Below are positions 10,938 through 53,951 of a DNA stretch of 64,000 bases, in pieces. This stretch comes from an uncultured Chloroflexia bacterium (GTDB lineage: Bacteria > Chloroflexota > Anaerolineae > CG2-30-64-16), in assembly GCA_963810095.1 (NCBI GenBank), contig CAWEMM010000006.1, positions 416,001-480,000 on the forward strand, written 5' to 3'. Numbering within the stretch: position 1 is the first letter of the stretch; each line of letters begins with the position of its first letter. The position numbers and the translations under genes are program-made. The notes under the pieces were generated by a model. It ran no database searches. It had not been told where the DNA came from and saw nothing but the letters and a program-made list of their open reading frames with translations.

Positions 10938-11152
10938 GACCCGACAGAATCAGTGTGCCTGTACTCAGGATCGCCTGTCCTTCCTCGCCGCGGGGCCCGA
11001 ACATTGTAGTGCCTGGCGCGGCCTGATTCTGTAAGCGCGGTAGCATGGGATTTGTCGAGCCCTATGGCATAATACTACCAACTGCAGAATCGAGTCCGCA
11101 ATATGGCCGGGGCTGCGGCCTGTTGCGCCTGTCGCTGAAAGGAGTACACGTC

Positions 11153-20304: not shown

Positions 20305-21133
20305 ATGAAGCCAATCCAATCTGACGGCGGCACGCTCCAGCGTTATGATGACTTCGACTTCGGCCCCCTGGCCCCGCGTCATGTCGACGTGTGGCTGCCA
20401 CCGGCTTACGAAGACACGGGCGAAGCGCGGCCCGTCCTGTACATGCACGACGGGCAGAATCTGTTCGGCCTCCCCGAATCTTACGGCGGTAAGGACTGGG
20501 GAATCGACGACGCAATCCTGCGGCTGAGCAGAGACCCGGCCTTCGTCGCTCCCATCGTCGTGGGCGTGTGGAACAGCGCGGACCGCTGGCGCGAGTACAT
20601 GCCGCAGAAGCCCGCCGAGTCGGGCGTGATGCGCACGCGCGTTGCGCGCTTCGCCGGCCGCCCCGAGCACCGGCTCATGTCAGACGCGTACCTCAGCTTC
20701 CTGGTGCACGAGGTCAAACCGTTCGTCGACGCGACCTACCGTACGTTGCCCGGCCGCGAGTATACGGCCGTGATGGGCTCGAGCATGGGTGGACTGATCT
20801 CACTCTATGCGCTGGAAGAATATCCGGGTGTGTTCGGCGGCGCCGGCTGCGTCTCGACCCATTGGCCCGCGGGCCGCAATGCGCTGGTGCATGCGATGGG
20901 GACGGCCCTGCCGCGTGCCGGCAGCCACCGGCTTTACTTCGACTATGGGACTGCCACGCTCGATTCGTCCTATGAGCCGTATCAGCAGCGAATGGATGGC
21001 TATGTGGAGGCCGCGGGCTATCGTCGGGGCAAGGACTGGGTGACGCTCAAGTTTCCCGGGCGCGGACCACTCAGAGGCCGCATGGTCCGCGCGGGTGCAC
21101 CTCCCGCTGCAGTTCTTGTTTGATCAGGCTTGA
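20305..21133 (+). CDS. Putative esterase (alpha/beta hydrolase); apparent indel near 21060
   Basis: VWLPP, VLYMHDGQNLF, GSSMGG, YFDYGT. Confidence 0.88.
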
Positions 21134-37605: not shown

Positions 37606-37679
37606 GCCCCCGTAGCTCAGGTGGATAGAGCGAGGCACTCCTAACGCCTAGGCCGAGCGTTCGAGTCGCTCCGGGGGTA
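37606..37679 (+). tRNA. tRNA-Arg(CCT), left copy (attL)
   Basis: Cloverleaf GCCCCCG/CGGGGGT, D arm GCTC/GAGC with A20, anticodon loop CT-CCT-AA, T loop TTCGAGT; CCA not encoded. Confidence 0.92.
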
Positions 37680-37681
37680 CT

Positions 37682-37754: not shown

Positions 37755-38684
37755 ATGGCGCGCATAGACCTAGGAACTCGTTTAAAAGTAGTTCAATCCC
37801 AACCGGCATCGGACATTCAGCAGGCGGGTGATTTGTTCCTGCTGGACTGCCGCGCCCGGCGTCTCAGCCCCGGCACGCTCGATAGTTACACCCGGCGCAT
37901 GCGTAGTTTTCAAGCTTGGTTCCACGAAAACGGCATCACCCGGCTCGTGGACCTCACGTCTCATCACATTCGCGCCTACCTCGTGCACCTTCAAGATCGC
38001 GGCCTGGATGACGACACGGTCATCACCGAGTACCGCGTGTTGCGGGCCTGGCTGAACTTCTGCGTCCAGGAAGAAATGATCAGCGCCAGCCCCATGAAAA
38101 AAGTACGGTCCCCGCGCTTGCCCAAGGAGATTCTGCCTGCCTTCGCGCCCGAAGATGTACAGAAGCTTCTCGCAGTCTGCCAGACGCCGCGCGACAAGGC
38201 CATCATCCTCTGCCTGCTCGACACAGGCTGCCGGGTGTCGGAGTTCGCAGCCCTCAACATCGGCGATGTGGACGCGCAGAACGGCGCGGTCCAAGTGAAG
38301 CTCGGCAAGGGCCGCAAGGACAGAATCGTATACTTGGGGGCCAAGGCCCTGCGCGCCCTGCTGAAATACCTGCGCACCCGGCCAGACTCCAAGCCCGCCG
38401 ATGCGCTGTGGCTGAGCGAGAAACGCCGGGAGCGACTGACGCTGTGGGGCCTGGAAGAGCTTCTGTCGCGGCTTGGGAAGCGCGCGGGCGTCGAGCACGT
38501 CAACCCGCACACCTTTCGGCGGTCATTCGCGCTGTGGAGCCTGCGCAGTGGCATGGACATCTTTAGCCTACAACGGCTGATGGGCCACGCCGACCTAACC
38601 GTTCTTCACAGGTATCTCGCCTTGGTAGAAGGCGACCTTGAAGCCGCACATCGGCAGCACGGCGCGGTCGACAACATGCTGTAA
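37755..38684 (+). CDS. Tyrosine recombinase/integrase, XerC/D-like (core-binding + catalytic domains only)
   Basis: DTGCRVSE (R), GKGRKDR (K), HTFRR, MGH, RYL catalytic set intact; N-terminal SAM-like domain; 309 aa. Confidence 0.93.
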   Translation: MARIDLGTRLKVVQSQPASDIQQAGDLFLLDCRARRLSPGTLDSYTRRMRSFQAWFHENGITRLVDLTSHHIRAYLVHLQDRGLDDDTVITEYRVLRAWLNFCVQEEMISASPMKKVRSPRLPKEILPAFAPEDVQKLLAVCQTPRDKAIILCLLDTGCRVSEFAALNIGDVDAQNGAVQVKLGKGRKDRIVYLGAKALRALLKYLRTRPDSKPADALWLSEKRRERLTLWGLEELLSRLGKRAGVEHVNPHTFRRSFALWSLRSGMDIFSLQRLMGHADLTVLHRYLALVEGDLEAAHRQHGAVDNML

Positions 38685-38806
38685 CCCTTGCTGCGGAGCT
38701 TCAGCACTGGCGGTGGTCCTTGCCGGAGGTCGTCACACGGCCACCGGCAAGTTGCATTTTGCGCCCGGCCAGCAGGCGACGATCTTGCAGTGAGGGGAAA
38801 AGAGCC

Positions 38807-39214
38807 ATGCGTACACAGACTATTCTGAACAAAGCCATGGTCCAACGCCTCTATGAGGACGTCTGGAACCGAAATGACCCGGCGGCAGCCGCCGACATCT
38901 TCGCTCAACCGAGCGGCGCCCAAGCCTATGTCAGCCAGTTTCGCGCGGCGTTTCCGGACGTGCACCGTACGGTGCTGACAATGGTTGCGGAAGGGGACGT
39001 CGTGATGACGCACTGGACAGCCCGGGCAGCCCATCTGGGCCAATGGCACGATCTCGCCGCCACCGGCGCTCGCGTGCGTTGGACAGGCGTTACCATCGCC
39101 CATGTGGCCGATGGGAAGATCGTGGCGGACCAGACGGTGTGGGACGCGCTGGGTCTGTTGGAGCAGACCGGCGCGGTCCCGCGAATCAGGGAGGCCGACG
39201 GTACTCAGCTGTAG
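38807..39214 (+). CDS. SnoaL-like ester cyclase / NTF2 fold
   Basis: NKAMVQR, FRAAFPD, VAEGDVV, ATGARV, DGKIV. Confidence 0.85.
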   Translation: MRTQTILNKAMVQRLYEDVWNRNDPAAAADIFAQPSGAQAYVSQFRAAFPDVHRTVLTMVAEGDVVMTHWTARAAHLGQWHDLAATGARVRWTGVTIAHVADGKIVADQTVWDALGLLEQTGAVPRIREADGTQL

Positions 39215-39439
39215 TCGGGGTTAGGAGCCGCACGCTGCGCGTAAGGGCCTCCCGCTTGATCGCGTCCGGAATGCGGAGGGCTGGAACCCGCCAGCCACCC
39301 CGATACATCGCGGCTGCGTAGAATGCCGATCAGCCTGCGGCTACCAGGACATATGCCGACCTCGTATCGCATGCTGCCACCAACCTCGCTAACCTATGCG
39401 AGCTTAAGCCGGGACAAGCATGTCTTTGTTTGTCGGGCC

Positions 39440-39616
39440 ACACGCGTCCTGGTGCCTCAGATTGCGCGCAACCTGCCTCGGCGCGCGCCGCAAAACAGTC
39501 GTACAATAGGAACGCGCAGCAGATGACAAACACTGCTCGCCGCGCATGACGAAGCAGCATGACCGTACCAGAGGTCCTTTCTGATGTTGGAGAGCCTGTA
39601 ACGCCGAGGTATCTGA
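39440..39616 (+). pseudogene. Decayed 3' end of a tyrosine recombinase (relic 1)
   Basis: Frameshifted translation LRAT...NAQQM..HCSPRMTKQHDRT...; ends 3 nt before the GNAT ATG; 52/68 nt identical to relic 3 over 39498-39565 vs 45180-45247. Confidence 0.65.
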
Positions 39617-39619
39617 TCA

Positions 39620-40411
39620 ATGAAATCGTCTGCTGAGTTGTTGGCCGCGTCGGACGCCAACATGATTGCGTTCTGGTCGGCCTATGGTCGCGGGGCTGGC
39701 TGCACCTCGCAGGTTGCGCCGGGCGTGGTCTGGGTCTATACGGGCATCCCGACCCCGTTGTTCAACTGCGTGCTGCTGTCCGACGCCGGGGCAGCGGATG
39801 TGCAGGCGACTGCGGACGCGGTCCGGGCGAAGATCGATGAGCGGGGCGTACCGGCCATGTGGTGGGTCGGCCCGCAGGCTGGGCAAGACGACGTCGCCCC
39901 GCGGCTGGAGCGGATTGGCCTTGCCCCTGCCGGGGAAGTGCCCGGCATGGCGCTCGACCTGGCGCTGCTGAATGACGCACATGAGGCGCGTCCGGAGTTC
40001 ACAGTCGAGCGCGTCCACGGGACCGTGATGCAAGCGCTGTGGGGGCACACTGCCGGGATCGGGACGGGTTTCCCGGATGAGACCAGCGCCGCGCTGGCAC
40101 AGGTTGAAGCGACCCTGAACGACTCGGAGTATCTGGCGCAGCGCCGCTATATCGGTTACTTGAATGGCGAGCCGGTGGCGACGTCGGCCCTGGTATTGGC
40201 TGCGGGAGTGGCAGGCATCTATGCCGTCGCCACAGTGCCCGCGGCCCGCCGCAGGGGCATTGGTCGGCTGATGACGGTGCTCCCACTACTGGAGGCCAGG
40301 CGGGAAGGTTATCACAGCGGCATCCTCCAGTCGTCGGCGATGGGCTATCCGGTGTACAAGGCGATTGGTTTTGAAGAGGTGAGCCGGTACAGGCTTTATG
40401 CGCAGGCTTAG
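39620..40411 (+). CDS. GNAT-family acetyltransferase
   Basis: GEPVAT, AGIYAVATVPAARRRGIG, YKAIGF. Confidence 0.88.
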   Translation: MKSSAELLAASDANMIAFWSAYGRGAGCTSQVAPGVVWVYTGIPTPLFNCVLLSDAGAADVQATADAVRAKIDERGVPAMWWVGPQAGQDDVAPRLERIGLAPAGEVPGMALDLALLNDAHEARPEFTVERVHGTVMQALWGHTAGIGTGFPDETSAALAQVEATLNDSEYLAQRRYIGYLNGEPVATSALVLAAGVAGIYAVATVPAARRRGIGRLMTVLPLLEARREGYHSGILQSSAMGYPVYKAIGFEEVSRYRLYAQA

Positions 40412-40439
40412 TGGATCGCGCCAGGCTTGCGACATCGAG

Positions 40440-40790
40440 GGCAGCGCGGCCTCAACCCGCGCCTGGGGGAGGCTCGGAGACATCAGCCCGCCGGTCGGCC
40501 TGGCACCAGCACCTATACGGTCAGCCTGTCCCTGGTTGTCGAGCCGCTTGTGAAGACCCAGGCGGGTGCCGCGCGCATCACAGCCCGCGCAGCGCGCCCT
40601 GGCCCTGGACTGGCTGTGGGCCAACTACCACGGCAAGGCCAAGTACAGAGACGTCTGGTTCGAGTGGGCAGGCAAGCCGCTGCTCATCGCGTTCGACCCG
40701 ATGACCTTAACGATGCGAGTGTCGGCAACATATCCCATCAGCTACATGATCCGGAACTGGACGGGTCGCCGCGGCGCAGATCGAAGTTGA
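40440..40790 (+). pseudogene. Fragment of a larger protein (glycoside-hydrolase-like?)
   Basis: ALDWLWANYHGKAKYRDVWFEWAGKPLLIAFDP looks coding, but has no start and is truncated. Confidence 0.35.
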
Positions 40791-40870
40791 CGCCTCTGAG
40801 GACTGTATGTCGTTGAACGACTTTCGCATGGCCTTCACTTAATTCACATTTTCCATCCCGACGTCCCTCT

Positions 40871-41221
40871 CTACTCTGCTTTATCCGCGGCTCTTATTAT
40901 GGTCTTGGCAGCTTCTCGGTCAACCGATTCCTGATAGATGTCGGCGTAAGTTTTCAAATCTTTGATCAGATCGTCACAGAAAGCCGCCACGTCTCTGCCC
41001 GTCACTTCGAGCACGCCTTTCCCCGCGGCCGCGCCCGCTTCAAAGAGATCAATGATCCCCGAGAGCAAACCCGTCCCCTCGCTTAGCTCTACCGGGCCGA
41101 CCTTGAAGAGATACTGCTGAATCTCCTTGTAGACAATCTGGTAGTCCCGCGGGAGCGCATTGACACGCGCCATGTGCGCTCGCCACTCTTTTTTGCCTTC
41201 GATCATATCTCGTATGCTCAT
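40871..41221 (-). CDS. DUF1048-family protein
   Basis: KKEWR...LPRDYQIVYKEIQ...GRDVAAFCDDL. Confidence 0.88.
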   Translation of the reverse strand: MSIRDMIEGKKEWRAHMARVNALPRDYQIVYKEIQQYLFKVGPVELSEGTGLLSGIIDLFEAGAAAGKGVLEVTGRDVAAFCDDLIKDLKTYADIYQESVDREAAKTIIRAADKAE

Positions 41222-41230
41222 GCTGTCCTC

Positions 41231-41578
41231 CTACTTGCCCAATTTCCTGGCGACATTGTTGTTCAGCTGCTCGCGCCACTTATCGCGATAGGACTGTGCC
41301 CCTGCTTCGCCAGCGAGCGCAGCACAGAAGCCGCTGATGTCGTCACCCAAGACCTCCTTAACGCTCTGACCCTCCGCCGCCGTTTCTTCGAGCAGGCCAA
41401 GCACACCGTCAAGAATGGGCATGAGGTTGCGACCGGCAAAGTCTGTGTACGGCCAAAGATTGGCGTTGACCTGCACCCATGCCGTTTGATAATCAGGCGG
41501 CAGCTTTTTGGCTCGCGACTCGAAGGTCTTCCATTCCTTCTTCATGTCACTGCCAGTAATCTTGTCCCAGAAGCTCAT
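41231..41578 (-). CDS. DUF1048-family protein
   Basis: SFWDKITGSD...LPPDYQ...LGDDISGFC...YRDKWREQLN. Confidence 0.88.
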   Translation of the reverse strand: MSFWDKITGSDMKKEWKTFESRAKKLPPDYQTAWVQVNANLWPYTDFAGRNLMPILDGVLGLLEETAAEGQSVKEVLGDDISGFCAALAGEAGAQSYRDKWREQLNNNVARKLGK

Positions 41579-41904
41579 TGTTTCTTCTCCTTCAACTCCC
41601 TGATTTTTGATGATACAAACCCCCATTTCGTCCAGAACGCGGCGAGTTCCTGCCGCCCCGCCTCGTTAAGCCTGTAGAACTTGCGCGGCGGCCCCATGTC
41701 GGACGGCCGTTTTTCGATATCCACGAGGTTGTTCTTCTCGAGCCGGACCAGGATGGTATAGACCGTCCCATCTACAACGTCCGAGAATCCAAGCGCGTTC
41801 AGCCGCCGGGTGATCTCGTAGCCGTAGATTTCCTCGTGGCTGATGATTTCAAGAACACAGCCCTCCAGCACGCCTTTGAGCATTTCAGTTAGGTTTTCTG
41901 CCAT
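41575..41904 (-). CDS. PadR-family regulator
   Basis: EMLKGVLEGCVL, YGYEI, GTVYTILVRLE, GPPRKFY. Confidence 0.92.
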   Translation of the reverse strand: MAENLTEMLKGVLEGCVLEIISHEEIYGYEITRRLNALGFSDVVDGTVYTILVRLEKNNLVDIEKRPSDMGPPRKFYRLNEAGRQELAAFWTKWGFVSSKIRELKEKKQ

Positions 41905-41964
41905 GCAGCTTCACTCCCATGCTATCCTGTATGACCTGTATTGAGTGTGACTTAGTACTGGTAT

Positions 41965-41993
41965 AAAGTAACACAGAATAGCGTGGCTGTCAA
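41965..41993 (-). promoter_or_regulatory. Promoter of padR-DUF1048 operon
   Basis: TTGACA-17bp-TACTTT. Confidence 0.55.
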
Positions 41994-42217
41994 TGGTTTG
42001 ATCGCCAACATCCGTCATGATAAAGGTTCTCCCACGCGTGCTGGTCAAGCTCCCCCTGGGGGCATTGACTAATACAGGCCATTGCGTGCAATCCCCCCAC
42101 CCTAGTGTCGAGCGCCGCGGGGAGTAGGATCGCTACCTGCCACAGGCCGTGTCCGCAGGCGCTAACTTAGCAGAAGCAGCGCGCCAACCCCTCTCACGTC
42201 ATCCCTTCCCGCACGCC

Positions 42218-42303
42218 AAGAAGAAGCAGAATAATAAGAACAATCAGAATCCACAGGTTAGGGGGTGTAAGGTTCTGATCACTCTTCTTCTTCTGATCGT
42301 TTT
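42218..42303. repeat. Purine/pyrimidine (AAG/CTT) imperfect inverted repeat
   Basis: aagaagaagcagaataataagaacaatcagaa...ttctgatcactcttcttcttctgatc. Confidence 0.55.
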
Positions 42304-42429
42304 CCACCCGCGGCTGTGGACACCTAGCCGATGTGGCGGGCATGCACGCACAACCGCCGCCCCTCGACAGTGCGCACGAAACGCGGCTGGCTCTCGCTGT
42401 GCAGGTCGTGGCCCAGGGGATCAATCCCA

Positions 42430-42620
42430 TGCCACAGCCGCGGTGGACCTGCGAATCGCCATCATGCTGCGCAGTAAGCTTCACCGCCTGCCTACACATC
42501 GGTGGTACAATCGAGCCTGCACAGCAGATGGCAACCACGGATCGCCGCGCACGACCCGGCTGTATGACCGGACCAATTGCGCGAGCAGCCTGGCTGGATC
42601 GACAAGCTAATTACACTCCG
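42430..42620 (+). pseudogene. Decayed 3' end of a tyrosine recombinase (relic 2)
   Basis: CAVSFTACLHIGGTIEPAQQMA then (frameshift) NHGSPRTTRLYDRTN. Confidence 0.75.
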
Positions 42621-42690
42621 ACCGTGAGGGTGAGCGGCTTCAAGGGTGCCAGGTGTATGTCTACCAGCCCATTAAGGGGAAGGTGCGAAC

Positions 42691-43074
42691 ATGGAGACGA
42701 CAACACTGCCCGACCAGCCCGATGGGAAATCACCCGCAGGGGCTGACATCCGCTTCCTGGTGGCTGGCGCAACCGGCAACATGATCCACAGCACCGTCCC
42801 GCCGCGCCAGGTAAACCGGGCGACGGTCCACGCGACGGTAAGCGAGTTCTGGTATGTCTTGGAGGGACGCGGCGAAATCTGGCGCGACAACGGTGTGGCG
42901 AGTTGCGTCACGGCGCTTGTTCCGGGCACCGCCATCGATATTCCTGTCGGGACCGCGTTTCAGTACCGCAACCTCGCGGACACCGAGCTTAAGTTCATTT
43001 GTGTCGCCATGCCGCCGTGGCCCGGCGCTGCCGAAGCGAGCTGTGTGGAAGGTATCTGGCGACCAACCGTATGA
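42691..43074 (+). CDS. Cupin-domain protein
   Basis: HATVSEFWYVLEGRGEIWR, IPVGTAFQYRN, MPPWPG. Confidence 0.85.
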   Translation: METTTLPDQPDGKSPAGADIRFLVAGATGNMIHSTVPPRQVNRATVHATVSEFWYVLEGRGEIWRDNGVASCVTALVPGTAIDIPVGTAFQYRNLADTELKFICVAMPPWPGAAEASCVEGIWRPTV

Positions 43075-43189
43075 CCTTCGCGCGCCTACACCGGCGGCTG
43101 AACTTACCAGTGCCTCCGGGTCAACACATGCCCAGTCAATTCAAGAGTCAGTAGTTACGTCGCCTCCACACCCGGTCAACGAGGTGCTT

Positions 43190-43578
43190 ATGCAGATCAA
43201 GTTTGTCAGCATCACTGTAGAAGATCAAGAGCACGCTCTTGACTTCTACACCTCCGTCCTCGCTTCCAGAAGATGGCGGACATACCCACGGGCCAGTTCC
43301 GCTGGCTGACCGTGACCTCGGCCGATGGTATCGCGGGCACGGAACTCGTGCTGGAGCCAGCCGCCTTTCCGCCTGCCCAGGTATACCAGAAGGCTTTGTT
43401 TGAAGCGGGCATCCCAGCGACTGCCTTCATCACGCAAGACATTGCCGCCGAGGTCCAGCGCCTCCAAGCGCGGGGGGTCAAGTTCCGCGGCGAGGCGACA
43501 CATAGGGGACCGATCACGGCGGCGCTATTTGAAGACACTTGCGGAAATCTCATCAATCTCGTTCAGCCGGACGCCTGA
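43190..43578 (+). CDS. VOC/glyoxalase-family protein (indel near 43262)
   Basis: SITVEDQEHALDFYT..., RWLTVTS, ELVLEP, FEDTCGNLINL. Confidence 0.85.
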
Positions 43579-43621
43579 CCCGCTGTTGGGGGCGGCGTGC
43601 CCCGAAGCTGCACATTAGGGC
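43573..43621 (+). repeat. Degenerate, shortened attC-like hairpin
   Basis: GCCTGAC (overlaps stop codon)...ttgggggc/gccccgaa...ATTAGGGC. Confidence 0.35.
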
Positions 43622-44318
43622 GACCAAATGCTACGCGCCGGTGCGCTTGCCGCAGTGTTGCCCAACCCCCGGCCATCCCTGCGCCTGGCGCTTGCTCTAA
43701 AGGCCCACTTGCGCAAGGCTCCCACCGTAGTAGTACCCAAGGCGCGTCCGGTGCAACCTATGGCAAAAGGCGGGTGGACGACCAGGAAACCCAGCGACGG
43801 CCGCCGCCGGGCAAAGACGGTGATTTCCCGGCATGATCGCGGCTGCCGCCGAGCCAGGGACATGGCAGGCCAGAGACGGCGCGGGGTGGACGGTCCCGGC
43901 GAGGATCGACCGTACGGTCGGGCCGGGCAACATGGATGCGGGCAGGGTTCCCCACGGCCCGACGCTGCCATGACGCCAACCTGCCGACCATAGGCCAACC
44001 TCAGCTACAGTTATCGTGTCTTATATGCAGGAGACATGCCGCGTGCCGGGCGTGTAAATGACACTGGACTCTATGGAAGAGGTCGGCTGGGTCAGCGAAG
44101 CTGGAGTAGGTTAGCACAAACGAAAAGGCCGACGTAGCTGAACGTCGGCAATCAGGTTGGCCCGCGCAGTTGGGCGTGCGGCCGGACGTGTCACGCGCCG
44201 CGGCCCCGCAGGCTCAACTTCGGTACTTCGCTCTGTGGGGGTCAAGCGGTGCAGCACATGCTCACCCATCCAGTCGGACGGGGTCGTCAAGGCAAACGGG
44301 CAACCGTGCTGCCGCGCG

Positions 44319-44600
44319 TCAGACGGCAACCTGATCCGGGGCATAGATGACGACGAACGTGTCCCGTCGGTCAGCAAACCGCACCTCGACAGCCCACGAG
44401 CCGGGTTGCTGATCGGGATGCACGCTGGCAAGTGTCGACTCGGGGAAGGCGGCCAGCAGCCGGGTTAGGCGCGGGTAGAATTCCTGTGGCAACTCCCCCA
44501 GGTTGCTGCCGACCGGTACGTCGTCAGCTGGTCGTGGTGAGGGCAATTCGGCGTGGGGTTGTGCTTCATAATCCGGCGTTATCATCTCGTGTAACCTCAT
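44319..44600 (-). CDS. Hypothetical protein
   Basis: Plausible ORF with protein-like composition; no motif recognised. Confidence 0.4.
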   Translation of the reverse strand: MRLHEMITPDYEAQPHAELPSPRPADDVPVGSNLGELPQEFYPRLTRLLAAFPESTLASVHPDQQPGSWAVEVRFADRRDTFVVIYAPDQVAV

Positions 44601-44644
44601 TCTATCCGTCGCAAGCCAAGGCTTGCGCGAGTGGCTCCAGGCTG

Positions 44645-44971
44645 TCAAATAGCCCCTACCGGCCAAGGTTCGCACGCGGCGAACATGACCAGTGCGCGCC
44701 GCCTTGCCTCAGTCTGGAGGATATCGCGCGCAAGGTGGTAGTTGAAACATGCCGACCCAGGGTGCTCCCCCGCCCGCGCCGCAATCGGGCAATCGGCCGG
44801 GCAACTGGGCAAAGCCTCACGCAGCGTCTGGTAGTTTGTGTACTCATCCAAGACCCGCGCCATGACGTGCCGGTATTCGCCCGCCCGGTGAAAATCCTCC
44901 GGTATCCGTTCCACTTGTAGAAGCAAACACAGCCGGATCGCCGTTTCCGTCACTTCGCACACGGTCATCAT
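44645..44971 (-). CDS. Hypothetical protein (Cys/His containing)
   Basis: RBS gggag before ATG; CPADCP...H..SAC motif. Confidence 0.45.
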   Translation of the reverse strand: MMTVCEVTETAIRLCLLLQVERIPEDFHRAGEYRHVMARVLDEYTNYQTLREALPSCPADCPIAARAGEHPGSACFNYHLARDILQTEARRRALVMFAACEPWPVGAI

Positions 44972-45039
44972 AGCGTCGCTCCCGAGAGGGGGAACATCTA
45001 CCCCCACCATCCAATCGTACGCCCGGCTGTCAAGCGACA

Positions 45040-45296
45040 TTGCGTGAGGCATTGCCCGCAGAACGGTCGACGGCCCGCACCGCGTGGTGCACCCCCCCGA
45101 CAGCAGGTGAGCCGGAACACCGCACACGACCTGCTGCCAAACATTCCGCGCAACTTGCAGCACCCCCGGCCTCAAAATAGTCGTACAATTGGAGCGTGCA
45201 GCAGAGCACGGACAACGGTCGCCGGGCACGACCACGCTGTATGACCGCATCAGCAACGCCATGAGCCTGGATGAGATCGAGCGCATGCTTATTCAG
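45040..45296 (+). pseudogene. Decayed 3' end of a tyrosine recombinase (relic 3)
   Basis: AGTPHTTCCQTFRAT (45129-45155 = TCCQTFRAT) then SPGTTTLYDRISNAMSLDEIERMLI. Confidence 0.8.
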
Positions 45297-45341
45297 GCAG
45301 CAGAATCGCGATGCCAAAGAACCGCCGGTGGGAGGTCAAGT

Positions 45342-45666
45342 ATGACTGAATCGATGCCACGCATTAGCAACGCTTTCCAAACCTTAATGAGCGATGCGCC
45401 GCACCACGCCCGGGCGTGTTGCGGCATGGTACAAGGGCCTCGCCCAAGCCAGCGCCCTGGATGGGAAAACCGCCGCTTTATGCTACCTGGCGGTGTTGGC
45501 GGCCCTGCGGCTGGAGAGCGGCATCCCCTTTCACGTTCAGGCCGCCAAGCGGGCAGGCGCAACCCGCGCGGAAGTCATTAGCGCCGTTCTGATCGGCTTG
45601 CCTGCGGCCGGACATGGCGTGACGCAGGTCCTGCCGACGGCGCTCGCCGCTTTCGATACGGATTGA
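45342..45666 (+). CDS. Carboxymuconolactone decarboxylase/AhpD-like protein (indel near 45410)
   Basis: ISNAFQT..., SALDGKTAALCYLAVLAA, GIPFHV, GATRAEVISAVL. Confidence 0.8.
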
Positions 45667-45854
45667 GCGCGGCAGTGCCGTGCCCAGGGCTGGGCGGGAC
45701 TCTGAACGGGCATGGGTCAACCCCGCTCAATTCGGCGCTGGAGTGGGCAGCCGAGGCCGGGACGGGGCAATGACCCGGGCAGCGCAAGACCCGGCCAAGA
45801 CGCGGGCTGACACAAGCAGCGTCAGCGTCGAGGCCGCATTATGGCGTTCAAGCC

Positions 45855-46037
45855 TCAGGACGCCCCAGGTCCGGTCTTGTCATCTTTCGGCTGCCGCTCA
45901 TGCTCTGCTCGCCGTCGGGCAGCTTCGGCAACGCGCCGCAGGTTCGCGATGGCCGCGGCGATCTCTTGGGCCACCGGACCTTGGCCTTTCTTTCGGTTGG
46001 GGCGCGAAGCATCCTCGGGTCGTTTGTCTTGCGTCAT
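45855..46037 (-). CDS. Small hypothetical protein
   Basis: 60 aa ORF with an amphipathic helix. Confidence 0.3.
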   Translation of the reverse strand: MTQDKRPEDASRPNRKKGQGPVAQEIAAAIANLRRVAEAARRRAEHERQPKDDKTGPGAS

Positions 46038-46231
46038 ATGGGCAAAACGAAGCGCAAGTAGTCGGAGTTCCTTGGGCGTGGTCCCGCCCAGGCATGATTG
46101 TCGGATGAGGTCGGACGGTGTATCATCCCGTCCGACCTGTGGGGTTCACCATCTGCCACGGTCTGGCTGTCGGTGTCGGCGCGAAGCGGGCTGTCTTGCC
46201 GGGCCGACACTCCATCATTCCGGAGGGCATT

Positions 46232-46699
46232 ATGAGCATGGCACAGTCGCGACGGCCATTTTGGGTCTATCTGCTGGTATTCTTTTGCGTGGTTCTCGGG
46301 TTGGGCGGCCTGTACGGGGGTGTGTCGTTCATCACCGATCCGACGGGCGCAGCGATGGGCATGGACGTCAGCATGTTGCGCGGCTTCATGAACACCTACC
46401 TGCCGTTTGGCGTCTTCCTGCTGATCGCGTTCGGGATCGCGCCGCTGGTGCTGGCGTGGGCGCTGATCGCGCGGCCGCGCTGGTTCCCAGCCATCACGCG
46501 GGCGACGGACCGGGATTGGGCCTGGGTCGTGACGCTGGCAATGGGCGCGGGGCTGCTCGTGTGGATGGCGGGCCAGTTCATCATCATGGGCTACCAAGCG
46601 CCGATCCAGGCCTTCACGACCTCTCTGGGCGCGGTCATCACTCTGTTGAGCCTGGTTCCTTCGGTACGGCAATACTACCGCGTCAGCGCGCGAGCTTGA
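46232..46699 (+). CDS. 4-TM membrane protein
   Basis: GGVSFITDPTGAAMG, YLPFGVFLL, WMAGQ; RBS ggagg. Confidence 0.75.
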   Translation: MSMAQSRRPFWVYLLVFFCVVLGLGGLYGGVSFITDPTGAAMGMDVSMLRGFMNTYLPFGVFLLIAFGIAPLVLAWALIARPRWFPAITRATDRDWAWVVTLAMGAGLLVWMAGQFIIMGYQAPIQAFTTSLGAVITLLSLVPSVRQYYRVSARA

Positions 46700-46869
46700 C
46701 GCGCCACGGTGTCCATCGTGGCCCAACGTGTAGGGCCACCTAAGCCATGGAGTCTCACACGCGTGGCCGCTGCCGAGGGTGTGCGTGCATCACCATGGCG
46801 TGCACTGTGCGATAATGAGTAGTTAGCTGGACTCACACTCACCATGACTACCAGGAAAGGAGAAGTCGC

Positions 46870-47502
46870 ATGACCTTGATCGCAATCAACGTACTGCTTG
46901 ATCCAGATGCCGCCACGGTCGAGCGGGCACAGGCGACGAACGCCCGGCTACGCGAGGACTATCCCGATGGTTTCGCCCTCGACGCCAACCACGCGCCGCA
47001 CATCACCCTGCTCCAGCGGTTTGTGCGGACGGCGGACCTTGACTGGGTCGCGCATGCTGTGGCCGAAGTGCTGCGCACAGAGCAGTCGATGAACTGGGAG
47101 AGCCATGCGACCGGCTACTATGACCTGGCCTACAAGAATCTCGGATTGGTGGGCATCGTCATCGAACCGACCGAGGATTTGCGGCGACTTCAGCAGAGGA
47201 TCATCGACGCCGTCGCCCCGTTCGCCGTGGAGAAGGGGACAGCCGAGGCCTTTGCCCCCCGCCCCGACGGCGCAGCGATCAGTCAGCCGACAGTGGACTA
47301 CGTGAACAACTTCGTCGGCACCCGCACCGGCGTGAACTACCACCCGCATTTGACCGTCGGCATAGGAACCCGCGGCTTCGTGGACGCTCTGAAAGCGGAG
47401 CCATTCCAGGCCTTTACCGTCCGGGCAGTATCCGTGAGCCTCTACCAGGTAGGGGATTACGGTGTGGCACAAAGGAAGCTCTATGACCTCCACCGTTGCT
47501 GA
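46870..47502 (+). CDS. 2H phosphoesterase / 2'-5' RNA ligase-like protein
   Basis: Two HxT motifs: PHITL and PHLTV. Confidence 0.8.
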   Translation: MTLIAINVLLDPDAATVERAQATNARLREDYPDGFALDANHAPHITLLQRFVRTADLDWVAHAVAEVLRTEQSMNWESHATGYYDLAYKNLGLVGIVIEPTEDLRRLQQRIIDAVAPFAVEKGTAEAFAPRPDGAAISQPTVDYVNNFVGTRTGVNYHPHLTVGIGTRGFVDALKAEPFQAFTVRAVSVSLYQVGDYGVAQRKLYDLHRC

Positions 47503-48424
47503 TCCACTACCCTCCTGGAATGATAGCCCCTCAAAGCAGGGCATCCTTGCGTTTGTCGCCAGGGTGACACAGGAAGGTTCACCCGACTTCGTGCCACTGG
47601 CAGAACGCATCGCCGTGCACGACAACGACGGCACGCTCTGGCCGGAAAATCCGCTGCCGTTTCAGGCGGCCTTTGCCATCGATGAACTTAACCGGCGCGT
47701 CCTCGCTGAGCCTGGACTCGCGGCCGATCCGATGGTGCAGGCCGCCCTGTCCGGCGACTTTGCCAAGCTCCTGGCAGGCCAACACCTGGATGGCCTCATG
47801 CAGGTCGCGGCGCTCACCCATGCTGGGATGACGACCGACGCGTTTCGTAACGCTGTGGAGACATGGCTGGCGACGGCCAAACATCCGCGGTTTGGCAGAC
47901 CCTATGACGAACTCACCTACCAACCCATGCAGGAACTCCTGCGCTATCTACGCGCCAATGGCTTCAAGAACTTCATCGTTTCCGGCGGCGGCGCGGACTT
48001 CATGCGCGTGTGGGTCGAGCGCGTGTACGGCATACCACCGGAGCAGGTTGTCGGCTCGACAACGCGGCCGACATTCGAGCTACGCAACAGCGGACCAGTG
48101 CTGACCAAGACGCTCGACTATTTATTCGTCAACGACAAGGAGGGCAAGCCGGTCGCCATTCATCAGTTTATCGGCCGACGACCGGTGATCTGTTGCGGGA
48201 ACAGCGACGGCGACCACGCCATGCTCCAGTACACGACGATCAACAACCCGCGCCCGAGTTTCGGCCTCATCGTCCACCATACGGACAACGAACGCGAGTA
48301 TGCCTATGACGCCGAGACGAAGAGCACCGGCAAGCTTGTCGAAGCCCTTAAGGAGGCCCCCAAGCGCGGCTGGGTCGTCGTGGACATGCAGCAGGACTGG
48401 AAGACCGTCTTTCAGTCCGATTAG
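47483..48424 (+). CDS. HAD-family acid phosphatase
   Basis: DPLPSWND, HDNDGTLWPE, IVSGGG, GNSDGD. Confidence 0.9.
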   Translation: MTSTVADPLPSWNDSPSKQGILAFVARVTQEGSPDFVPLAERIAVHDNDGTLWPENPLPFQAAFAIDELNRRVLAEPGLAADPMVQAALSGDFAKLLAGQHLDGLMQVAALTHAGMTTDAFRNAVETWLATAKHPRFGRPYDELTYQPMQELLRYLRANGFKNFIVSGGGADFMRVWVERVYGIPPEQVVGSTTRPTFELRNSGPVLTKTLDYLFVNDKEGKPVAIHQFIGRRPVICCGNSDGDHAMLQYTTINNPRPSFGLIVHHTDNEREYAYDAETKSTGKLVEALKEAPKRGWVVVDMQQDWKTVFQSD

Positions 48425-48461
48425 AGGTAACTCGTGGCAGGTCGACTTCGGTTCTGCCAGC

Positions 48462-48553
48462 CTACAACGGCCATAGACATCGACCGCCGAAGTGTTGCGC
48501 TGGTCGCCTGATGAAGCCTGCGCCGCAGCGCGCGGTTCAATACGCACTTAGGG
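48462..48553 (+). repeat. Degenerate attC-like site
   Basis: CTACAAC-ggcca-tagacatcgaccgc...gcgcggttcaa-tacgcaCTTAGGG. Confidence 0.35.
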
Positions 48554-48689
48554 ACGTCGAGCGTTTGTCGCCCGCGAAGGATCGGCGCGCGCTTCTTGGC
48601 TGAAGCTGAGCGACGGACACGGTCGGAAGGGGCCGCGAGTGAATGTATCCGTCTGTAGAACAACTCGGCCCCTTGCGCAGGAGTCGGCC

Positions 48690-49220
48690 ATGCCCGCACC
48701 CGTTCTTGTCCTGCCCGGCCTCGGCAACTCGGGGCCGCTGCACTGGCAATCCATCTGGGAACAGGCACATCCCGAATTTGTACGCGTCCAACAGCGCGAT
48801 TGGGATAACCCGGTTTGCCCAGAGTGGGTTGCCGCCATCGAGGCAGCCGTGCAGCGTGCCGGGCCGGATGTTGTGCTGGTCGCACACAGCCTCGCCTGTT
48901 TGGCCGTCGCCCATTGGTCGGCCAGCCCGCATTCACCCATTAAGGCCGCGCTGCTGGTTGCAGTACCCGACCCCGACTGCCCCGAGTATCCCGGGCACCT
49001 GCTTGGTTTCTCCAAGCCCCCCACCGAGCAGTTCACCTTTCCCGCCGTCGCCGTCGTCAGCGCCGATGATCCATATAGCACACCGGAACACGCCGAGCAG
49101 CTTGCGGCCGCTTGGGGCTGTCGTGTCGTTCGTGTCGGTGCTTACGGCCACATCAACGCCAGCAGCGGCCTTGGCGCTTGGGCCGAGGGTTATGCGTTGC
49201 TGGACCATTTGCGGAGCTAA
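48690..49220 (+). CDS. RBBP9/YdeN-family alpha/beta hydrolase
   Basis: PGLGNSGPLHWQ, VAHSLAC, SADDPY, GHINASSGLGAW. Confidence 0.92.
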   Translation: MPAPVLVLPGLGNSGPLHWQSIWEQAHPEFVRVQQRDWDNPVCPEWVAAIEAAVQRAGPDVVLVAHSLACLAVAHWSASPHSPIKAALLVAVPDPDCPEYPGHLLGFSKPPTEQFTFPAVAVVSADDPYSTPEHAEQLAAAWGCRVVRVGAYGHINASSGLGAWAEGYALLDHLRS

Positions 49221-49311
49221 CCCTTCGTTCGGGGCGGAGGTGCCCGCGGTTGCGGTTCTCGGTTGGGAGAGGGCATCGCCGCCGAGCAGTCCCCTGACTC
49301 CAACGTGAGAC
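49215..49311 (+). repeat. Degenerate attC-like site
   Basis: GCTAAC (contains the stop codon)-ccttcg-ttcggggcgga...tcccctga-ctccaac-GTGAGAC; ~97 bp. Confidence 0.5.
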
Positions 49312-49465
49312 AGTCAAGTCGCCCGGACCTGCGCGCTCCCAGAAGCTTGTGGCACCTGAGGTTGATTCCCAAGTCTGCCCGCCGCTATCGCCTGCCTGCC
49401 GGGCTAGGTTAGTGGTAGCCCCAACTGATCGAGCGGCGCGGTTTTCGACACTGCGGGCTGTGGGG

Positions 49466-50267
49466 TCACGCCGCGCCGCGTTTTAGTGTCGTGGTGCTGT
49501 CAGGGTGGCTCGACAGGCCCGCTCTGACATACGCCAGGCCCTCCAACCAATCCGCCGTCTCGTACACGCACTCACCGTCGGGCCGAAAAAGGTAGCCGCC
49601 GCCCGGGAAATCTTCATCTACGGTGCGCCCGGCCTGCGTCGCCACCGCAATCCACAGCCGGTAGTCGCGCGCGTAGGCTGCCAGGTACTGGTGGCACTCG
49701 CCGCGCCACCACGCGTAACCTGACCGCCAGTCGCGGGTGGCTTGCTCCCCATACAGACCCGGCGCAGCCACCTCAAACACCACCTGGGCACCCTGGCGGG
49801 CGCAGGCGGCGAAAACATCGGGGTTGTGGATGTCGGCGCAGATGGCGATGCCGTAGGTGAGATCGTCGTGGCGAAAAACAGGCACTGCGTTGCCCGGCGC
49901 AAACCAGGCCGCTTCCTCATCCACAATGGACACTTTGCGGTAGTAGCCGACCAAGCGGCCACCACGCGCCGCTACATGGGTGATAAATGGTTTGCCGGAT
50001 GGGTTCGCCTCTACCAATCCGGCGAGCAGGGTCGCCCGACCGTTGGCCGTCAGGGCGACAAGCGCCGCGACTTCGGGGCCATCAAGCCGCAGGATGGCCC
50101 CTGGCTGGCGCGTGGGGTCGATGTAGCCGGTCAGGCTCATTTCGGGGCACGCCACGATGCATGCGCCCTCCTGGTCGGACTGCTGGTACACGCGCTCGAT
50201 GGCGGCCAGGTTCTCGGCCACGGCCGCCTTCTCAGCAGCGCAGTTGGGCCAACGCCAGTGTTACCAT
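49466..50267 (-). CDS. Carbon-nitrogen hydrolase (nitrilase family); indel near the 5' end
   Basis: PEMSLTGY, YRK, AICAD catalytic triad motifs. Confidence 0.88.
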
Positions 50268-50408
50268 GCAGGGCAGTATAGCTAGCGGTGAGAAGAGGGT
50301 CAACCAGAGCGCGTCCGGGCAGAAATCGTAATGTTGCTCACGCGGATTTCACAAATGCAGCACTAAAGTAGTGAAATCGCCGTACTACCCATGACTAAGG
50401 AGAGCCAT

Positions 50409-50705
50409 ATGGAAGGTCCGATCTACAAATTCTTCCGTGTGCAGTGGACCGAGGCGGGGTATCAGTTGGGCCAGGCGGGACGCGACAACCTGCTAGCCAA
50501 AGAGGCGGAGCTTCGGCAGCAACTCGGCATCAAGAATGTGGTGCTCTGCAACTCGTTCTGGAGTGACGAACGCTGGGCCGCGTATGGGGTTCACGAATAC
50601 GCCGATATTGAGGCCGTGCGTAAGCACAACGCCGGGATGGTAGCGCTGGACTTGTTCCGCTACCTTGAATCCGAAACGATGTTGGGCACGGCCTGGGGGA
50701 GCTAG
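50409..50705 (+). CDS. Small hypothetical protein (ferredoxin-like/GYD-like fold?)
   Basis: RBS aaggag; WSDERW..YGVHEY...YLESETMLG. Confidence 0.6.
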   Translation: MEGPIYKFFRVQWTEAGYQLGQAGRDNLLAKEAELRQQLGIKNVVLCNSFWSDERWAAYGVHEYADIEAVRKHNAGMVALDLFRYLESETMLGTAWGS

Positions 50706-51101
50706 CCAGAGCCACCGGCCAGCCGCCTGCGTCGCGCACAACTCCTGTGAGTTCGCGCATTCGGAGTTACGAGCGTGGGTTGTCGCGTGTTTGGGAAACC
50801 AGGCGGCCTCGACGGCGGGCCGGTACGACGCACGCGTGGGGTGTGGGCCGCGCGCGGCCGGGAGCCGCGCGGCAATTCATATGACTTCGAAAGACGCGCG
50901 TCTTCCCCTTTGTAGATCGTCGGCGCGTTGCACGGCGCAGTCTGCCGAACGTCTTGACGCGTCCTGGCATGGCGCGACAATCGGTTCGTGCTGCGCGCTG
51001 TGATGTTCATTCCGCCTCAGTTCCCACAGAACAAGAGCCGGAGCAGTCACACAGCGCAGCGATCTGGGTCTGACAGCGGGCGAAGGGAGCCGCCGGAGGC
51101 C

Positions 51102-52040
51102 ATGCCGACCCCACGCCAGGATACCTCGCCAGACACCGCCCTGCGAACGCATGGCCTGTGCAAGGACTACGGCCCGATCCAGGCGGTCGTCGGCCTGGAC
51201 CTCCATGTGCGCCGCGGCGAAATCTACGCCTTCCTCGGCCCCAACGGCGCGGGCAAGACCACCACGATCCGCATGCTCCTGGGTCTGGTCCGACCGACCG
51301 CAGGTCAGGCCACCCTCTTGGGCGCACGCGTTGCGGCGGGCAGCAACCACGTCTTCGCCCGCGTGGGTTACCTGGTGGAAACGGCCACGGCCTATCCCAA
51401 TCTTACCGTGCGCGAGAACCTGGACATCCAGCGGCGACTCACGCGGGCACCCCGGGCGGCGGTCGGTGATGCCATGGAGCTTCTTGGCCTTGCCGGTTCA
51501 GCCAATCGGCAGGCGGGCCAGCTATCGCTCGGCAATAAACAGCGGCTGGCGCTGGCGCGCGCCCTGCTCCACCGCCCCGAGCTACTCATCCTCGATGAAC
51601 CGGCCAATGGGCTTGATCCGGCCGGGATCATCGAGGTGCGCGAGCTGCTGCGGCGCTTGGCGAACGAGAACGGCGTGACCGTCTTCCTGTCAAGCCACAT
51701 CCTGGCGGAGGTCGCGCAACTGGCCGACCGCATCGGCATTATCCACCAGGGCCGCCTGCTTCAGGAACTCGACTACGCCGAACTCCGCCGCCGAACGCGC
51801 CTGTACCTGGAAGTCGAAGTGAGCGAGCCAGACCGCGCGGCCGGGCTGTTAGCCGCGCGCCTCGGCATCACGGCGTTGGAGCGCACGCCCGAGGGTGGGC
51901 TGCGCCTCTTTGAAGGCTTCGACCGGCGCGCCGAGATCGCGCGCACCCTGGTCGAAGCTGGACTCGACCTGACGCACCTGGCCCTGGCGCAGGAGGACCT
52001 GGAGTCCTACTTCATGCGGCTGACGGGGGGTGCCGGGTAA
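51102..52040 (+). CDS. ABC ATP-binding protein (BcrA/lantibiotic-immunity type)
   Basis: GPNGAGKTT, LSLGNKQRL, LDEPANGLDP, SSH. Confidence 0.9.
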   Translation: MPTPRQDTSPDTALRTHGLCKDYGPIQAVVGLDLHVRRGEIYAFLGPNGAGKTTTIRMLLGLVRPTAGQATLLGARVAAGSNHVFARVGYLVETATAYPNLTVRENLDIQRRLTRAPRAAVGDAMELLGLAGSANRQAGQLSLGNKQRLALARALLHRPELLILDEPANGLDPAGIIEVRELLRRLANENGVTVFLSSHILAEVAQLADRIGIIHQGRLLQELDYAELRRRTRLYLEVEVSEPDRAAGLLAARLGITALERTPEGGLRLFEGFDRRAEIARTLVEAGLDLTHLALAQEDLESYFMRLTGGAG

Positions 52041-52823
52041 ATGTTCGGCCAAGCCGTCGTCACCGAGTTCCTGAAGCTGCGCCGGTCCCGGATCACCTGG
52101 TTTTCGCTGCTCGCACTGTCGCTGGGGCCGCTCGGCGGCGCGCTCTTCATGTGGATCGTGCGCGAGCCGGGCCGCGCGGCGCAGCTGGGCCTGCTCGGCA
52201 CCAAGGCGAACCTCGCCGGTCTTGAGGCAACGTGGCCCGCGTACCTGGCGCTGCTAACGCTGTTTGTCGGGATCGGCGGGATGCTGCTGCTGTCCTTCAT
52301 CGTCGCTTACGTCTTCGGCCGGGAGTACGCCGAGGGCACCGCAAAGAACTTGCTCGCGCTGCCGGTGGCCCGCCCCTCGTTCGTGCTGGCGAAGTTTGTG
52401 GTCGCGGCGGCGTGGTGGCTGGCCCTCGTCGCGGCGGTCCTCGCGGAGGCATTCGTGATCGGGAGCGCGCTCGGGTTGCCTGACTTCGCGCCGGGCCTGG
52501 CCCTCAGCGCCGGGCGCAATGCGCTGCTGGCCGCAGGCATCCCGTACCTGCTCGTGCCCGTTGTCGCGTGGATCACCCTATTGGGGCGCGGCTACCTGGC
52601 CCCGCTCGGCTTCACGCTGGCGATGCTCGTGCTGGGTAACGTGTTCGCCCGGACGGGCTGGGCACCCTGGTTCCCCTGGTCGATTGGGGCGCTGCTGCTC
52701 GGCACCGTCGGTCAACCGGCGCAGACATTGCCGCCGGGCAGCTTCGTCGTGCTCGGGCTGACATTCATCGCAGGCATCGCGGCCACCATCTGGCAGTTCA
52801 ACTACGCCGACTGCAACCAGTAG
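52041..52823 (+). CDS. ABC-2 permease (BcrB-like)
   Basis: EFLKLRRS, VFGREY..GT.KNLL.LP, FPWS. Confidence 0.85.
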   Translation: MFGQAVVTEFLKLRRSRITWFSLLALSLGPLGGALFMWIVREPGRAAQLGLLGTKANLAGLEATWPAYLALLTLFVGIGGMLLLSFIVAYVFGREYAEGTAKNLLALPVARPSFVLAKFVVAAAWWLALVAAVLAEAFVIGSALGLPDFAPGLALSAGRNALLAAGIPYLLVPVVAWITLLGRGYLAPLGFTLAMLVLGNVFARTGWAPWFPWSIGALLLGTVGQPAQTLPPGSFVVLGLTFIAGIAATIWQFNYADCNQ

Positions 52824-53806
52824 GCTCGCGCCGCAGCAGATAGGGGGCCGCGTCAGATTACCAAGCAGCTCCGATTCCGGCCTTTCTCTGCCCAACCAGG
52901 CCGCGCCGCCAACCTTCCAACTTACTCCAGCCTTAGCCCAAGACATCATGTCTCGATTGAAGGCCGACTGCGAACACGGATCGAGCGAATGACACCACGT
53001 TCTATCAGAAAGGTTGGCGTAGGTCGGCGGAAGCGGCTGACGTGCGCCATCCGGATGGGCTGTGGCGGGATGGCGAGAGGTGCATTGCCTTGTCGAGCAG
53101 TATCGTGGCGCACTGCCGGGGGCTGCGTGTTCAAACCCGCGCTGAACACGTCACCTGCCGCACAATGGCAATCGCTGCATGACAGCCATAAATGAGTCGG
53201 ACAAAAGCCCTGCTGTGCCATCAAGTTTTGATGGGGTCAGGCGGGGCTGTTGCGGCCACGCGATTGATCGGAGTTGAGATCTGGCGGCGCGGGGCGCTGC
53301 TGTCGATGACAAGGCGTGGGCCGTCAAGTGCGATGGCATGCGTCGAGCGGCTGCACCGGGTGCGACTGTGATGGCGCAATCAGGCCGGTCGCGTTGAAGC
53401 CCATCCTGCTGGTCGCCGGGCGGCCGCAGGGGTATGCGGTGGTCGAGCTAAATGAGCTACACGCCAGGCAGCGCGATTACGAATCGCCTAGCTGACCCGC
53501 GTGCCGCGACGGCGCGCGTCGGCTTTGGCGACGTTGTTTGCAACAACGGCCGTCGCTGGCAGCCGCTAAGATTGCGGCGTCGAGCCGCGCACGGATCGCA
53601 GGCGTGCCGGGCAAAAGTCGGGCAGCGAACTGAGCCGCTGGGATCGGAAATCTAGACGAGGTCGATGTTTTGGCAGAGTTGGTGCACAATGCGGACGATG
53701 GCTGCGAGTACTCGCTCTTGCGGTCTGGCCGTCGCTCCGATATAATCATGACGCTAAGCCAGCAAAATACAGCAAGGAATTCGCAAAATTCCTAAAATTC
53801 AAAGGC

Positions 53807-53867: not shown

Positions 53868-53941
53868 GCCCCCGTAGCTCAGGTGGATAGAGCGAGGCAC
53901 TCCTAACGCCTAGGCCGAGCGTTCGAGTCGCTCCGGGGGTA
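53868..53941 (+). tRNA. tRNA-Arg(CCT), right copy (attR)
   Basis: Identical to 37606-37679. Confidence 0.92.
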
Positions 53942-53951
53942 CTGGTTCGAT

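Follow-up and report, generated by a model that had tools for sequence, protein, structure and literature searches.

We analysed a 64,000-nucleotide stretch of DNA (hereafter the window) from an uncultured Chloroflexia bacterium (contig CAWEMM010000006.1 of assembly GCA_963810095.1, positions 416,001 to 480,000), and took a closer look at three diverged repeats that lie one after the other in a genomic island beside a tRNA-Arg gene. The repeats are 3' ends of the gene for an Xer-like tyrosine recombinase that is known from plasmids and many phyla, and each of these "tails" stands just before a different accessory gene. Series of such tails and small genes recur in other genomes and in metagenomes. 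We favour the explanation that the window holds a dead and headless cassette-type array, which arose through recombination in the 3' end of the recombinase gene and now lies within the tRNA-Arg island, and we give this explanation an even chance.

A repeat search of the window aligned 39438–39571 with 45120–45253 (73% identity, 98 of 134 positions) and found a 75-nt family in three copies, all on the + strand. A preliminary description of the sequence had noted this repeat at three places, and its count of 52 identical positions out of 68 for the core (39498–39565 against 45180–45247) is exact. In order to avoid circularity we based a DNA profile on the 3'-terminal 195 nt of 73 intact genes, all of them from other genomes, and at E ≤ 10 this profile gave three matches in total in the 64 kb, which are the three tails: 39445–39575 (tail 1, E 3.5e-6), 42480–42599 (tail 2, E 2.6e-15) and 45110–45293 (tail 3, E 1.5e-21). 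When the tails were included in the profile, nhmmer extended them to 39433–39616, 42434–42619 and 45112–45294, with starts at model positions 5, 6 and 2, that is within about 4 model positions of one another. Each tail is ~185 bp long, corresponding to the last ~62 codons of a gene for a recombinase of ~323 aa, and the distances from start to start of successive tails are 3001 and 2678 nt.

The three tails have decayed to different degrees. Tail 1 is frameshifted and the most decayed one, and is detectable at the DNA level only, with no match at the protein level. Tail 2 is frameshifted and ends in TAA at 42608–42610; it is matched by tblastn in two frames (E 6.5e-5) and by a C-terminal profile (E 0.003). 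Tail 3 is the best kept and covers positions 260–323 of the 323 profile positions (E 2.3e-13 against the C-terminal profile) in a single open frame, the middle of which is garbled and the stop codon of which is lost. It reads CCQTFRAT, with a change of H to Q in the HxxR motif, and has retained LYDR, the HxxR motif and the catalytic Tyr being hallmarks of a tyrosine recombinase. None of the three tails has the catalytic C-terminus in an intact frame on a whole gene. The translations had been assigned to the wrong copies in the preliminary description: TCCQTFRAT...LDEIERMLI belongs to tail 3 and NAQQM..MTKQHDRT to tail 1. Its proposal that the repeats are recombinase C-termini was correct, since tblastn and a loose six-frame profile search find tails 2 and 3 as recombinase ends and the DNA profile finds tail 1.

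The same conclusion is reached from plasmid records. The tail 3 peptide (45111–45296) matches the C-terminal 61–62 residues of annotated tyrosine recombinases in 149 of them, 146 of which cover at least 80% of the peptide (45–52% identity, best E 2e-7), and in the two records that were inspected the match reaches the last codon before the stop. With only ~24% identity the family is distinct from the island's own integrase, as had also been proposed. The family is big, and conserved to an unusual degree: using a Singulisphaera plasmid protein as query we found at least 8000 proteins at E ≤ 1e-20, many of them ~323 aa long and 65–70% identical across phyla, and species-representative genomes contain at least 599 loci of the family. 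It occurs in Acidobacteriota, Planctomycetota, Binatia, proteobacterial plasmids and the lineage of the window. The family is borne by mobile elements, being present in 138 plasmid records and only 3 phage records and having either ParA and a primase or ParB and RepO as neighbours. No curated NCBIfam family fits, every Xer or integron model staying far below its cut-off, and Pfam at E ≤ 10 gave no family for the isolated tail peptides; a word-indexed protein search with the tail 3 peptide, which covers longer proteins only, returned three candidates, none of which was scored. In some hosts the family multiplies like an insertion sequence, as in the Vicinamibacterales genome G389 (behind locus L097) with 36 family matches, at least 14 of them full length, and in the Bryobacterales genome G404 (behind L114) with 19 matches that are mostly fragments. 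On plasmids of Agrobacterium, Rhizobium and Roseibium (L033, L035, L007) the gene sits amid genes for abortive infection, zeta-toxin, TIGR02391, NACHT and HTH proteins, which form variable neighbourhoods of defence type.

Nothing but the gene end is left of this recombinase in the window. A full-length protein profile run in six frames with domain E-values up to 20 found no N-terminal piece, i.e. nothing of the first ~260 codons, in the 64 kb, and the same loose search does find the island integrase, tail 2 (split into pieces that lie in two different frames) and tail 3 (positions 260–323). Likewise, when two full-length homologues were compared with the window by tblastn, only their last ~62 residues aligned, besides the 24%-identical island integrase. 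In the whole assembly (6.13 Mb in 16 contigs, 88.5% complete) the three tails are the sole full copies, and contig C9 has one more, partial match (E 1.8e-6); an intact family gene is absent from the assembled genome, the best other recombinases being 26–27% identical. Tails 1 and 3 have derived substitutions and two 1-nt deletions in common (alignment read by eye), and thus both descend from one already broken tail rather than from a pair of decayed genes. The three tails have flanks that are unrelated to one another, and tblastx between the modules that follow them revealed no common coding block, merely five matches of 19–29 residues between modules 1 and 3. The serial arrangement described earlier, with each relic just before different accessory genes, is confirmed, the modules sharing nothing but the tails.

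A series that still has its head was found in the Bryobacterales genome G328, where two tails lie downstream of an intact family gene and on its strand, at distances of 6.6 and 8.9 kb. The likeness among the intact gene and both tails breaks off at one common base (..GGACTCCCCTCCTCCAC..) on one side and at the stop codon on the other. These copies differ by ~20 of 189 nt, with 17–18 synonymous as against 1–3 non-synonymous codon changes, and because this divergence is mostly synonymous each tail must recently have been part of a working gene; the two tails look exactly like successive displaced, recently functional ends. No recombinase was found in the 6.6-kb and 8.9-kb inserts by Pfam (10 and 9 open reading frames (ORFs), not all small ORFs scanned) or by the six-frame family profile, and no mosaic pattern was seen among the three ends when read by eye. 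The inserts share one ORF of 488/489 aa just before each tail (L047 16009–17475 and L140 14344–15813, − strand; 61% identical copies), which belongs to no known family and has a sub-threshold match to HTH_17, and their other cargo differs. A frameshifted copy of this ORF lies directly upstream of the intact family gene in L043 (8056–9568). After the last tail of G328 follow ParA and a primase. A comparable series is present in the Binatia genome G400, where a stretch of 5.7 kb next to ParB and RepO genes contains four relics, all on one strand, and among 80 loci with an intact gene two (L096 and L115) have a short tail just downstream of the intact gene. As side observations, the ORF of 488/489 aa has one predicted membrane stretch (by eye), and in two Acidobacteriota loci (L047 9727–9943, L043 9723–9950) a conserved promoter-like TTGACAGC..TATCAT lies upstream of the family gene, the start of which is overlapped by an ORF of ~60 codons.

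Within the lineage of the window we compiled 34 metagenome contigs, which were found by a 29-nt tail motif (~533–561 of the 603-nt model). Short tails are more numerous there than whole genes: six of the 34 loci hold full-length family genes, and among the 27 fragments that are not limited by a contig edge 24 start at model position 373 or later, i.e. in the last 230 nt. The motif forces the 3' part to be present but not a short 5' extent, so that this concentration of starts is informative; random decay would not produce it. In five fragments the likeness is lost abruptly at ..|ACCGGCAT.., with unrelated left flanks, and in five others at ..|(T)GAGCATGC.. (starts at model positions 492–496). 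Four of the latter (both in L154 and those in L158 and L159) have related left flanks that are not recombinase, from ~18 nt (L158) to ~105–120 nt in length. Five of the 34 contigs carry two fragments on one strand, 0.9–1.2 kb apart, and the ORFs between or after the metagenome fragments are single, on the same strand and intact. They encode the same kinds of proteins as the cargo of the window: a lipocalin-like ORF stands by the tail in L150, a methyltransferase, then a VOC gene 21 nt past the tail and then a dienelactone hydrolase are found in L152, an EEP-family ORF in L154 and an alpha/beta hydrolase in L144. The layout of these four contigs is that of single-gene, same-strand cassettes, whereas the units of the window measure 2.7–3.0 kb and have genes on both strands. 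Given the comparable series in G328, G400 and the metagenome loci, the term "integron-like array" of the preliminary description is fair for the layout; its construction from whole mini-elements is not supported.

Among the closer relatives, the same-genus genome G001 contains a mosaic relative of the island with nine likeness blocks in altered order, bordered by two tRNA-SeC-like copies and not by tRNA-Arg. Two of the 18 ends of these blocks fall within tails. A likeness of 92% begins at 42478 in tail 2 and continues through the following cupin gene, and a likeness of 89% ends at 45170, where the G001 copy of tail 3 breaks off directly behind ..ACAATT and gives way to unrelated DNA. A second genome of the genus, G002, has an intact family gene with small genes of the same orientation behind it. 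When the DNA of tail 3 was used as query, 12 of the 36 other genomes in the taxonomic family gave matches, and all loci returned are C-terminal pieces except for the gene of G002. With the tail 3 peptide a class-wide six-frame search had matched 0 of 300 other genomes, a query that must be regarded as insensitive because the DNA search then matched 12 of the 36 same-family genomes. An apparent inverted tail upstream of the intact G002 gene was rejected, as it is the end of a different recombinase beside an IS91-type transposase; at this place (L136 13212–15094) the gene of an IS91-type Y2 transposase and an adjacent second tyrosine recombinase gene are divergent from the family gene. Elsewhere in G002 (contig C7, L139 ~11080–11120) a longer family relic (profile positions 199–322) carries a palindromic insertion of ~36 nt, and it has an 18-nt insertion in common with another G002 tail. 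The tRNA-SeC-like copies of G001 are located on the reverse strand of contig C29 (L030/L032) at 20586–20681 and 38923–39018 of the joined 40 kb (94 nt, 96.8% identical, opposite strand), with AACTACTACCGGTAGT just inside the left copy and an integrase after the right copy at the contig end.

In our favoured explanation the tails would separate the units of a cassette-type array. These units, each with one or a few small accessory genes, would have been added serially by recombination inside the 3' end of the recombinase gene, and as each incoming unit would bring a copy of the gene end, every event would leave one more tail between the cargo blocks. Candidate crossover points are located near codon 260, near ACCGGCAT or just after GGTGGTACAAT. 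The array of the window would then be a fossil that has lost its head, has frameshifted tails and two broken cargo genes, and rides in an island with an unrelated integrase. The identity, extent and decay of the tails and the recurrence of such series elsewhere are observations; from them we infer site-specific recombination in the 3' end of the gene as the builder of the series, as well as the acting enzyme and the point of strand crossing. A wider version of this idea, which we consider less likely than not, is that the Xer-like family (323 aa) might run a gene-capture platform of its own, in which the last 100–190 bp of the coding sequence would be the attachment module, mobile cassettes with a copy of this module and one or a few genes would insert behind the gene body and arrays would outlast the recombinase as CALINs (attC clusters without an integrase) do, the window being a dead example.

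Several observations weigh against the cassette-type array. This genome (88.5% complete) lacks both a head and an intact family gene, so that the case for the mechanism has to be made from other genomes, and the derived indels shared by tails 1 and 3 mean that part of the series may be the copying of a dead tail. Conservation at the third codon position over the last 80 codons of 76 intact genes showed no excess, and hence no family-wide DNA site is visible. The fragment starts in the metagenome contigs are not uniform and cluster near model positions 404–424, 444–457 and 492–496 of 603; as local alignment favours starting at conserved blocks, such clusters can be faked. The two of 18 breakpoints of G001 that fall into tails are a weak count, with the tails making up 3.4% of the island and ~0.6 being expected by chance. 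In a census of fragments in the 78 genomes behind the 80 loci, the C-terminal pieces among the matches listed start anywhere from position 115 to 285 of 323, several of them at 258–263, and N-terminal pieces exist too. Tails that are inverted and upstream of the gene were found in L111, L065, G372 and G389, which is not predicted by a simple insertion model, and a clean headed array within 10 kb is seen in one of the 80 loci (L047).

A dead gene fragment might also have been spread by ordinary duplication, general recombination or hitch-hiking in a decaying island, in which case the tails would have no role and would mark no insertions. For tails 1 and 3, with their shared derived changes, this holds in part; in addition, the whole region is pseudogene-rich and the family leaves many fragments of all kinds in G389 and G404. 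However, a segmental duplication would have carried the flanks along, which are unrelated, and none of the tails is closer to the other tails (53–62% identity) than to the intact same-genus gene of G002 (59, 62 and 75%). Neither the regular alternation of tail and ORF in 5 of the 34 metagenome loci nor the synonymous-only pattern by which the G328 tails diverge is expected from passive spread, and we regard it as unlikely.

The tails could furthermore be the ends of separate elements that were stacked at one site, each having int at its outermost end and directed towards the junction, and that then suffered interior deletions, so that the gene after a tail would be that of the next element. 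This would agree with the likeness always stopping at the stop codon and new DNA beginning 0–120 nt later, and with the plasmid-like backbones that adjoin the arrays. It is nevertheless very unlikely, as many independent deletions would be needed that all end in the same ~230 nt, and in G328 at the same base, and as units of ~1 kb with a single enzyme gene are not credible as self-integrating elements.

According to the preliminary description three complete mini-elements of int and cargo had inserted in tandem, after which the int genes decayed in place to their 3' ends and the cargo was kept. The tails are truly recombinase ends, each ahead of different cargo, and since the 488/489-aa ORF seen ahead of both tails in G328 immediately precedes the intact gene in L043, the pair of ORF and tail could derive from a pair of ORF and int. 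In contrast to this proposal there is no N-terminal remnant in the 64 kb even at loose thresholds, the three starts lie within ~4 model positions, tails 1 and 3 have derived indels in common, the starts of 24 of 27 metagenome fragments fall within the last 230 nt and the G328 tails end their likeness at one base. The cargo was not spared either, two of its genes being broken, and decay of whole mini-elements in place appears highly improbable to us.

We give next to no credit to a "suicidal" integrase of the SSV type, in which an attachment site inside int would split the gene on integration and leave the tails as Int(C) halves: the tails are indeed discrete C-terminal parts followed by genes downstream of int, and the G001 copy of tail 3, a 5' piece ending in ..ACAATT, and the five fragments that start just past that point, four with a shared foreign left flank, look like reciprocal junctions, but an Int(N) partner was found neither in the window nor in the G001 island, G328 has an intact gene and two tails with no N half on that contig, and a search of the DNA ahead of the gene in L043 and G328 for a copy (≥8 nt) of the codon-260 region, tRNA-like or otherwise, gave nothing.

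The three tails are situated in the left half of a 16.3-kb island, which is bordered by a perfect 76-nt direct repeat (100%) of tRNA-Arg(CCT), the left copy at 37606–37681 and the right copy at 53868–53943, both on the + strand. The whole tRNA gene is duplicated and not just its 3' part, and with a direct tRNA repeat at both ends and an integrase beside the left copy the region is a tRNA-bounded genomic island. An 8-nt inverted motif was noticed just inside both tRNA copies (CTACTACC at 37685 and GGTAGTAG at 53855). The integrase (37755–38684, + strand, 309 aa) belongs to a different Xer-like family (PF00589, E 1.5e-34), its NCBIfam matches all being under the cut-off. It is followed by a SnoaL-like gene (38720–39214, + strand; PF07366, E 2.1e-26), which forms the unit ahead of tail 1. 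Past tail 1 come a GNAT-like ORF of 263 aa (39620–40411, + strand; weak GNAT families, best E 1.8e-5) and, on the opposite strand, two DUF1048 genes and a PadR regulator (40871–41904, − strand; PF06304 twice and PF03551), which make up module 1. Tail 2 is followed by a cupin gene (42691–43074, + strand; PF07883, E 4.9e-10), a VOC/glyoxalase gene (43190–43578, + strand) and unassigned ORFs, and tail 3 by a CMD-like gene (45342–45666, + strand; PF02627 on 45394–45666). No tail was found between the CMD-like gene and the right tRNA copy.

The cargo had been described as intact-looking and as beginning 3–70 bp behind each relic. The gaps are in fact ~0–3, 80 and ~46 nt, and two of the genes are not intact. 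The VOC gene is broken over two frames, with profile positions 2–23 in one and 52–120 in another, and the CMD-like gene has a frame shift near 45415–45431. A low-depth metagenome contig spans 43170–43454, and with it the VOC break, with no gap, and a metagenome contig that is ~92% alike is without one base at 45431 in the CMD-like gene (one contig, depth 3.4). Upstream of tail 2 a low-GC patch (42180–42300, AAGAAGAAGCAGAATAATAAGAAC...) was observed, and a second island-like region of G001, on contig C24, has an 84%-alike counterpart of it. A possible joint of 45236 to 53419 was discarded as unreliable, as it rests on one contig with a side of 20 letters. In public sequencing runs the best holders carry ≤0.29 of the sampled window words, from which no conclusion on habitat or strain can be drawn.

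If the favoured explanation is true, cassette arrays are not unique to integrons, and an unrelated recombinase family stacks genes using its own gene end as docking site. This would take place in phyla of soils and sediments, in which integrons have received little study, and it would offer a first clue to the function of a very large and uncharacterised family of recombinases with at least 8000 proteins. With this knowledge, repeats of 100–190 bp that represent a recombinase end might serve as an annotation marker for accessory-gene arrays. Should the explanation fail, the region would be an ordinary pseudogene-rich island.

Our search of the full-text literature returned descriptions of integrons, CALINs, SSV-type integrases and the e14/icd system and no description of arrays separated by recombinase-end repeats. 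Such a feature is also not mentioned in the accessible part of a tyrosine recombinase classification paper (PMC8138268), the supplementary tables of which might place the family in a named subgroup. The window resembles tRNA-targeting islands in having an integrase next to tRNA-Arg and a direct repeat at the far end; it differs from them in that the tails are unrelated to the tRNA repeat, the integrase is of another family than the tails and the whole 76-nt tRNA gene is duplicated. The likeness to integron arrays and CALINs consists in the same-strand series of short units with small accessory genes (GNAT, VOC, cupin, lipocalin, methyltransferase, hydrolase) and a repeated separator. As with CALINs, headless arrays exist, and as in integrons, at least one genome has an array with a tyrosine recombinase gene at its head. 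In integrons the attC sites fold as hairpins and intI is transcribed divergently from its array. In contrast, the separator described here is the recombinase gene's own 3' coding end and not attC, and the array is downstream of and co-oriented with the recombinase gene. When DNA folds were compared with shuffled sequences no signal of a single-strand hairpin was obtained for a G328 tail (z −0.38) or for tail 3 of the window (z +0.08). Moreover, the family protein and the G002 homologue are not IntI, with 34.6–34.7 bits against TIGR02249 and its cut-off of 265.

For SSV-type split integrases of archaeal viruses and plasmids, as described in the accessible parts of PMC7253208 and PMC8371274, a recombination point inside the integrase frame would explain C-terminal pieces, but the hosts here are bacteria and intact genes occur beside orphan tails with no matching N halves (window, G001 island and G328 contig). 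Prophage e14, which according to the accessible part of PMC13626634 inserts at icd, leaves a C-terminal pseudogene, icdC, and supplies a substitute end. Here the target is the recombinase gene itself and insertion is serial, no integrase was detected in the G328 inserts, and the window holds displaced fragments only, with the body of the target gene gone. What both have in common is a target gene that stays whole and whose displaced C-terminal piece ends up beyond the insert, and G328 shows this twice in series.

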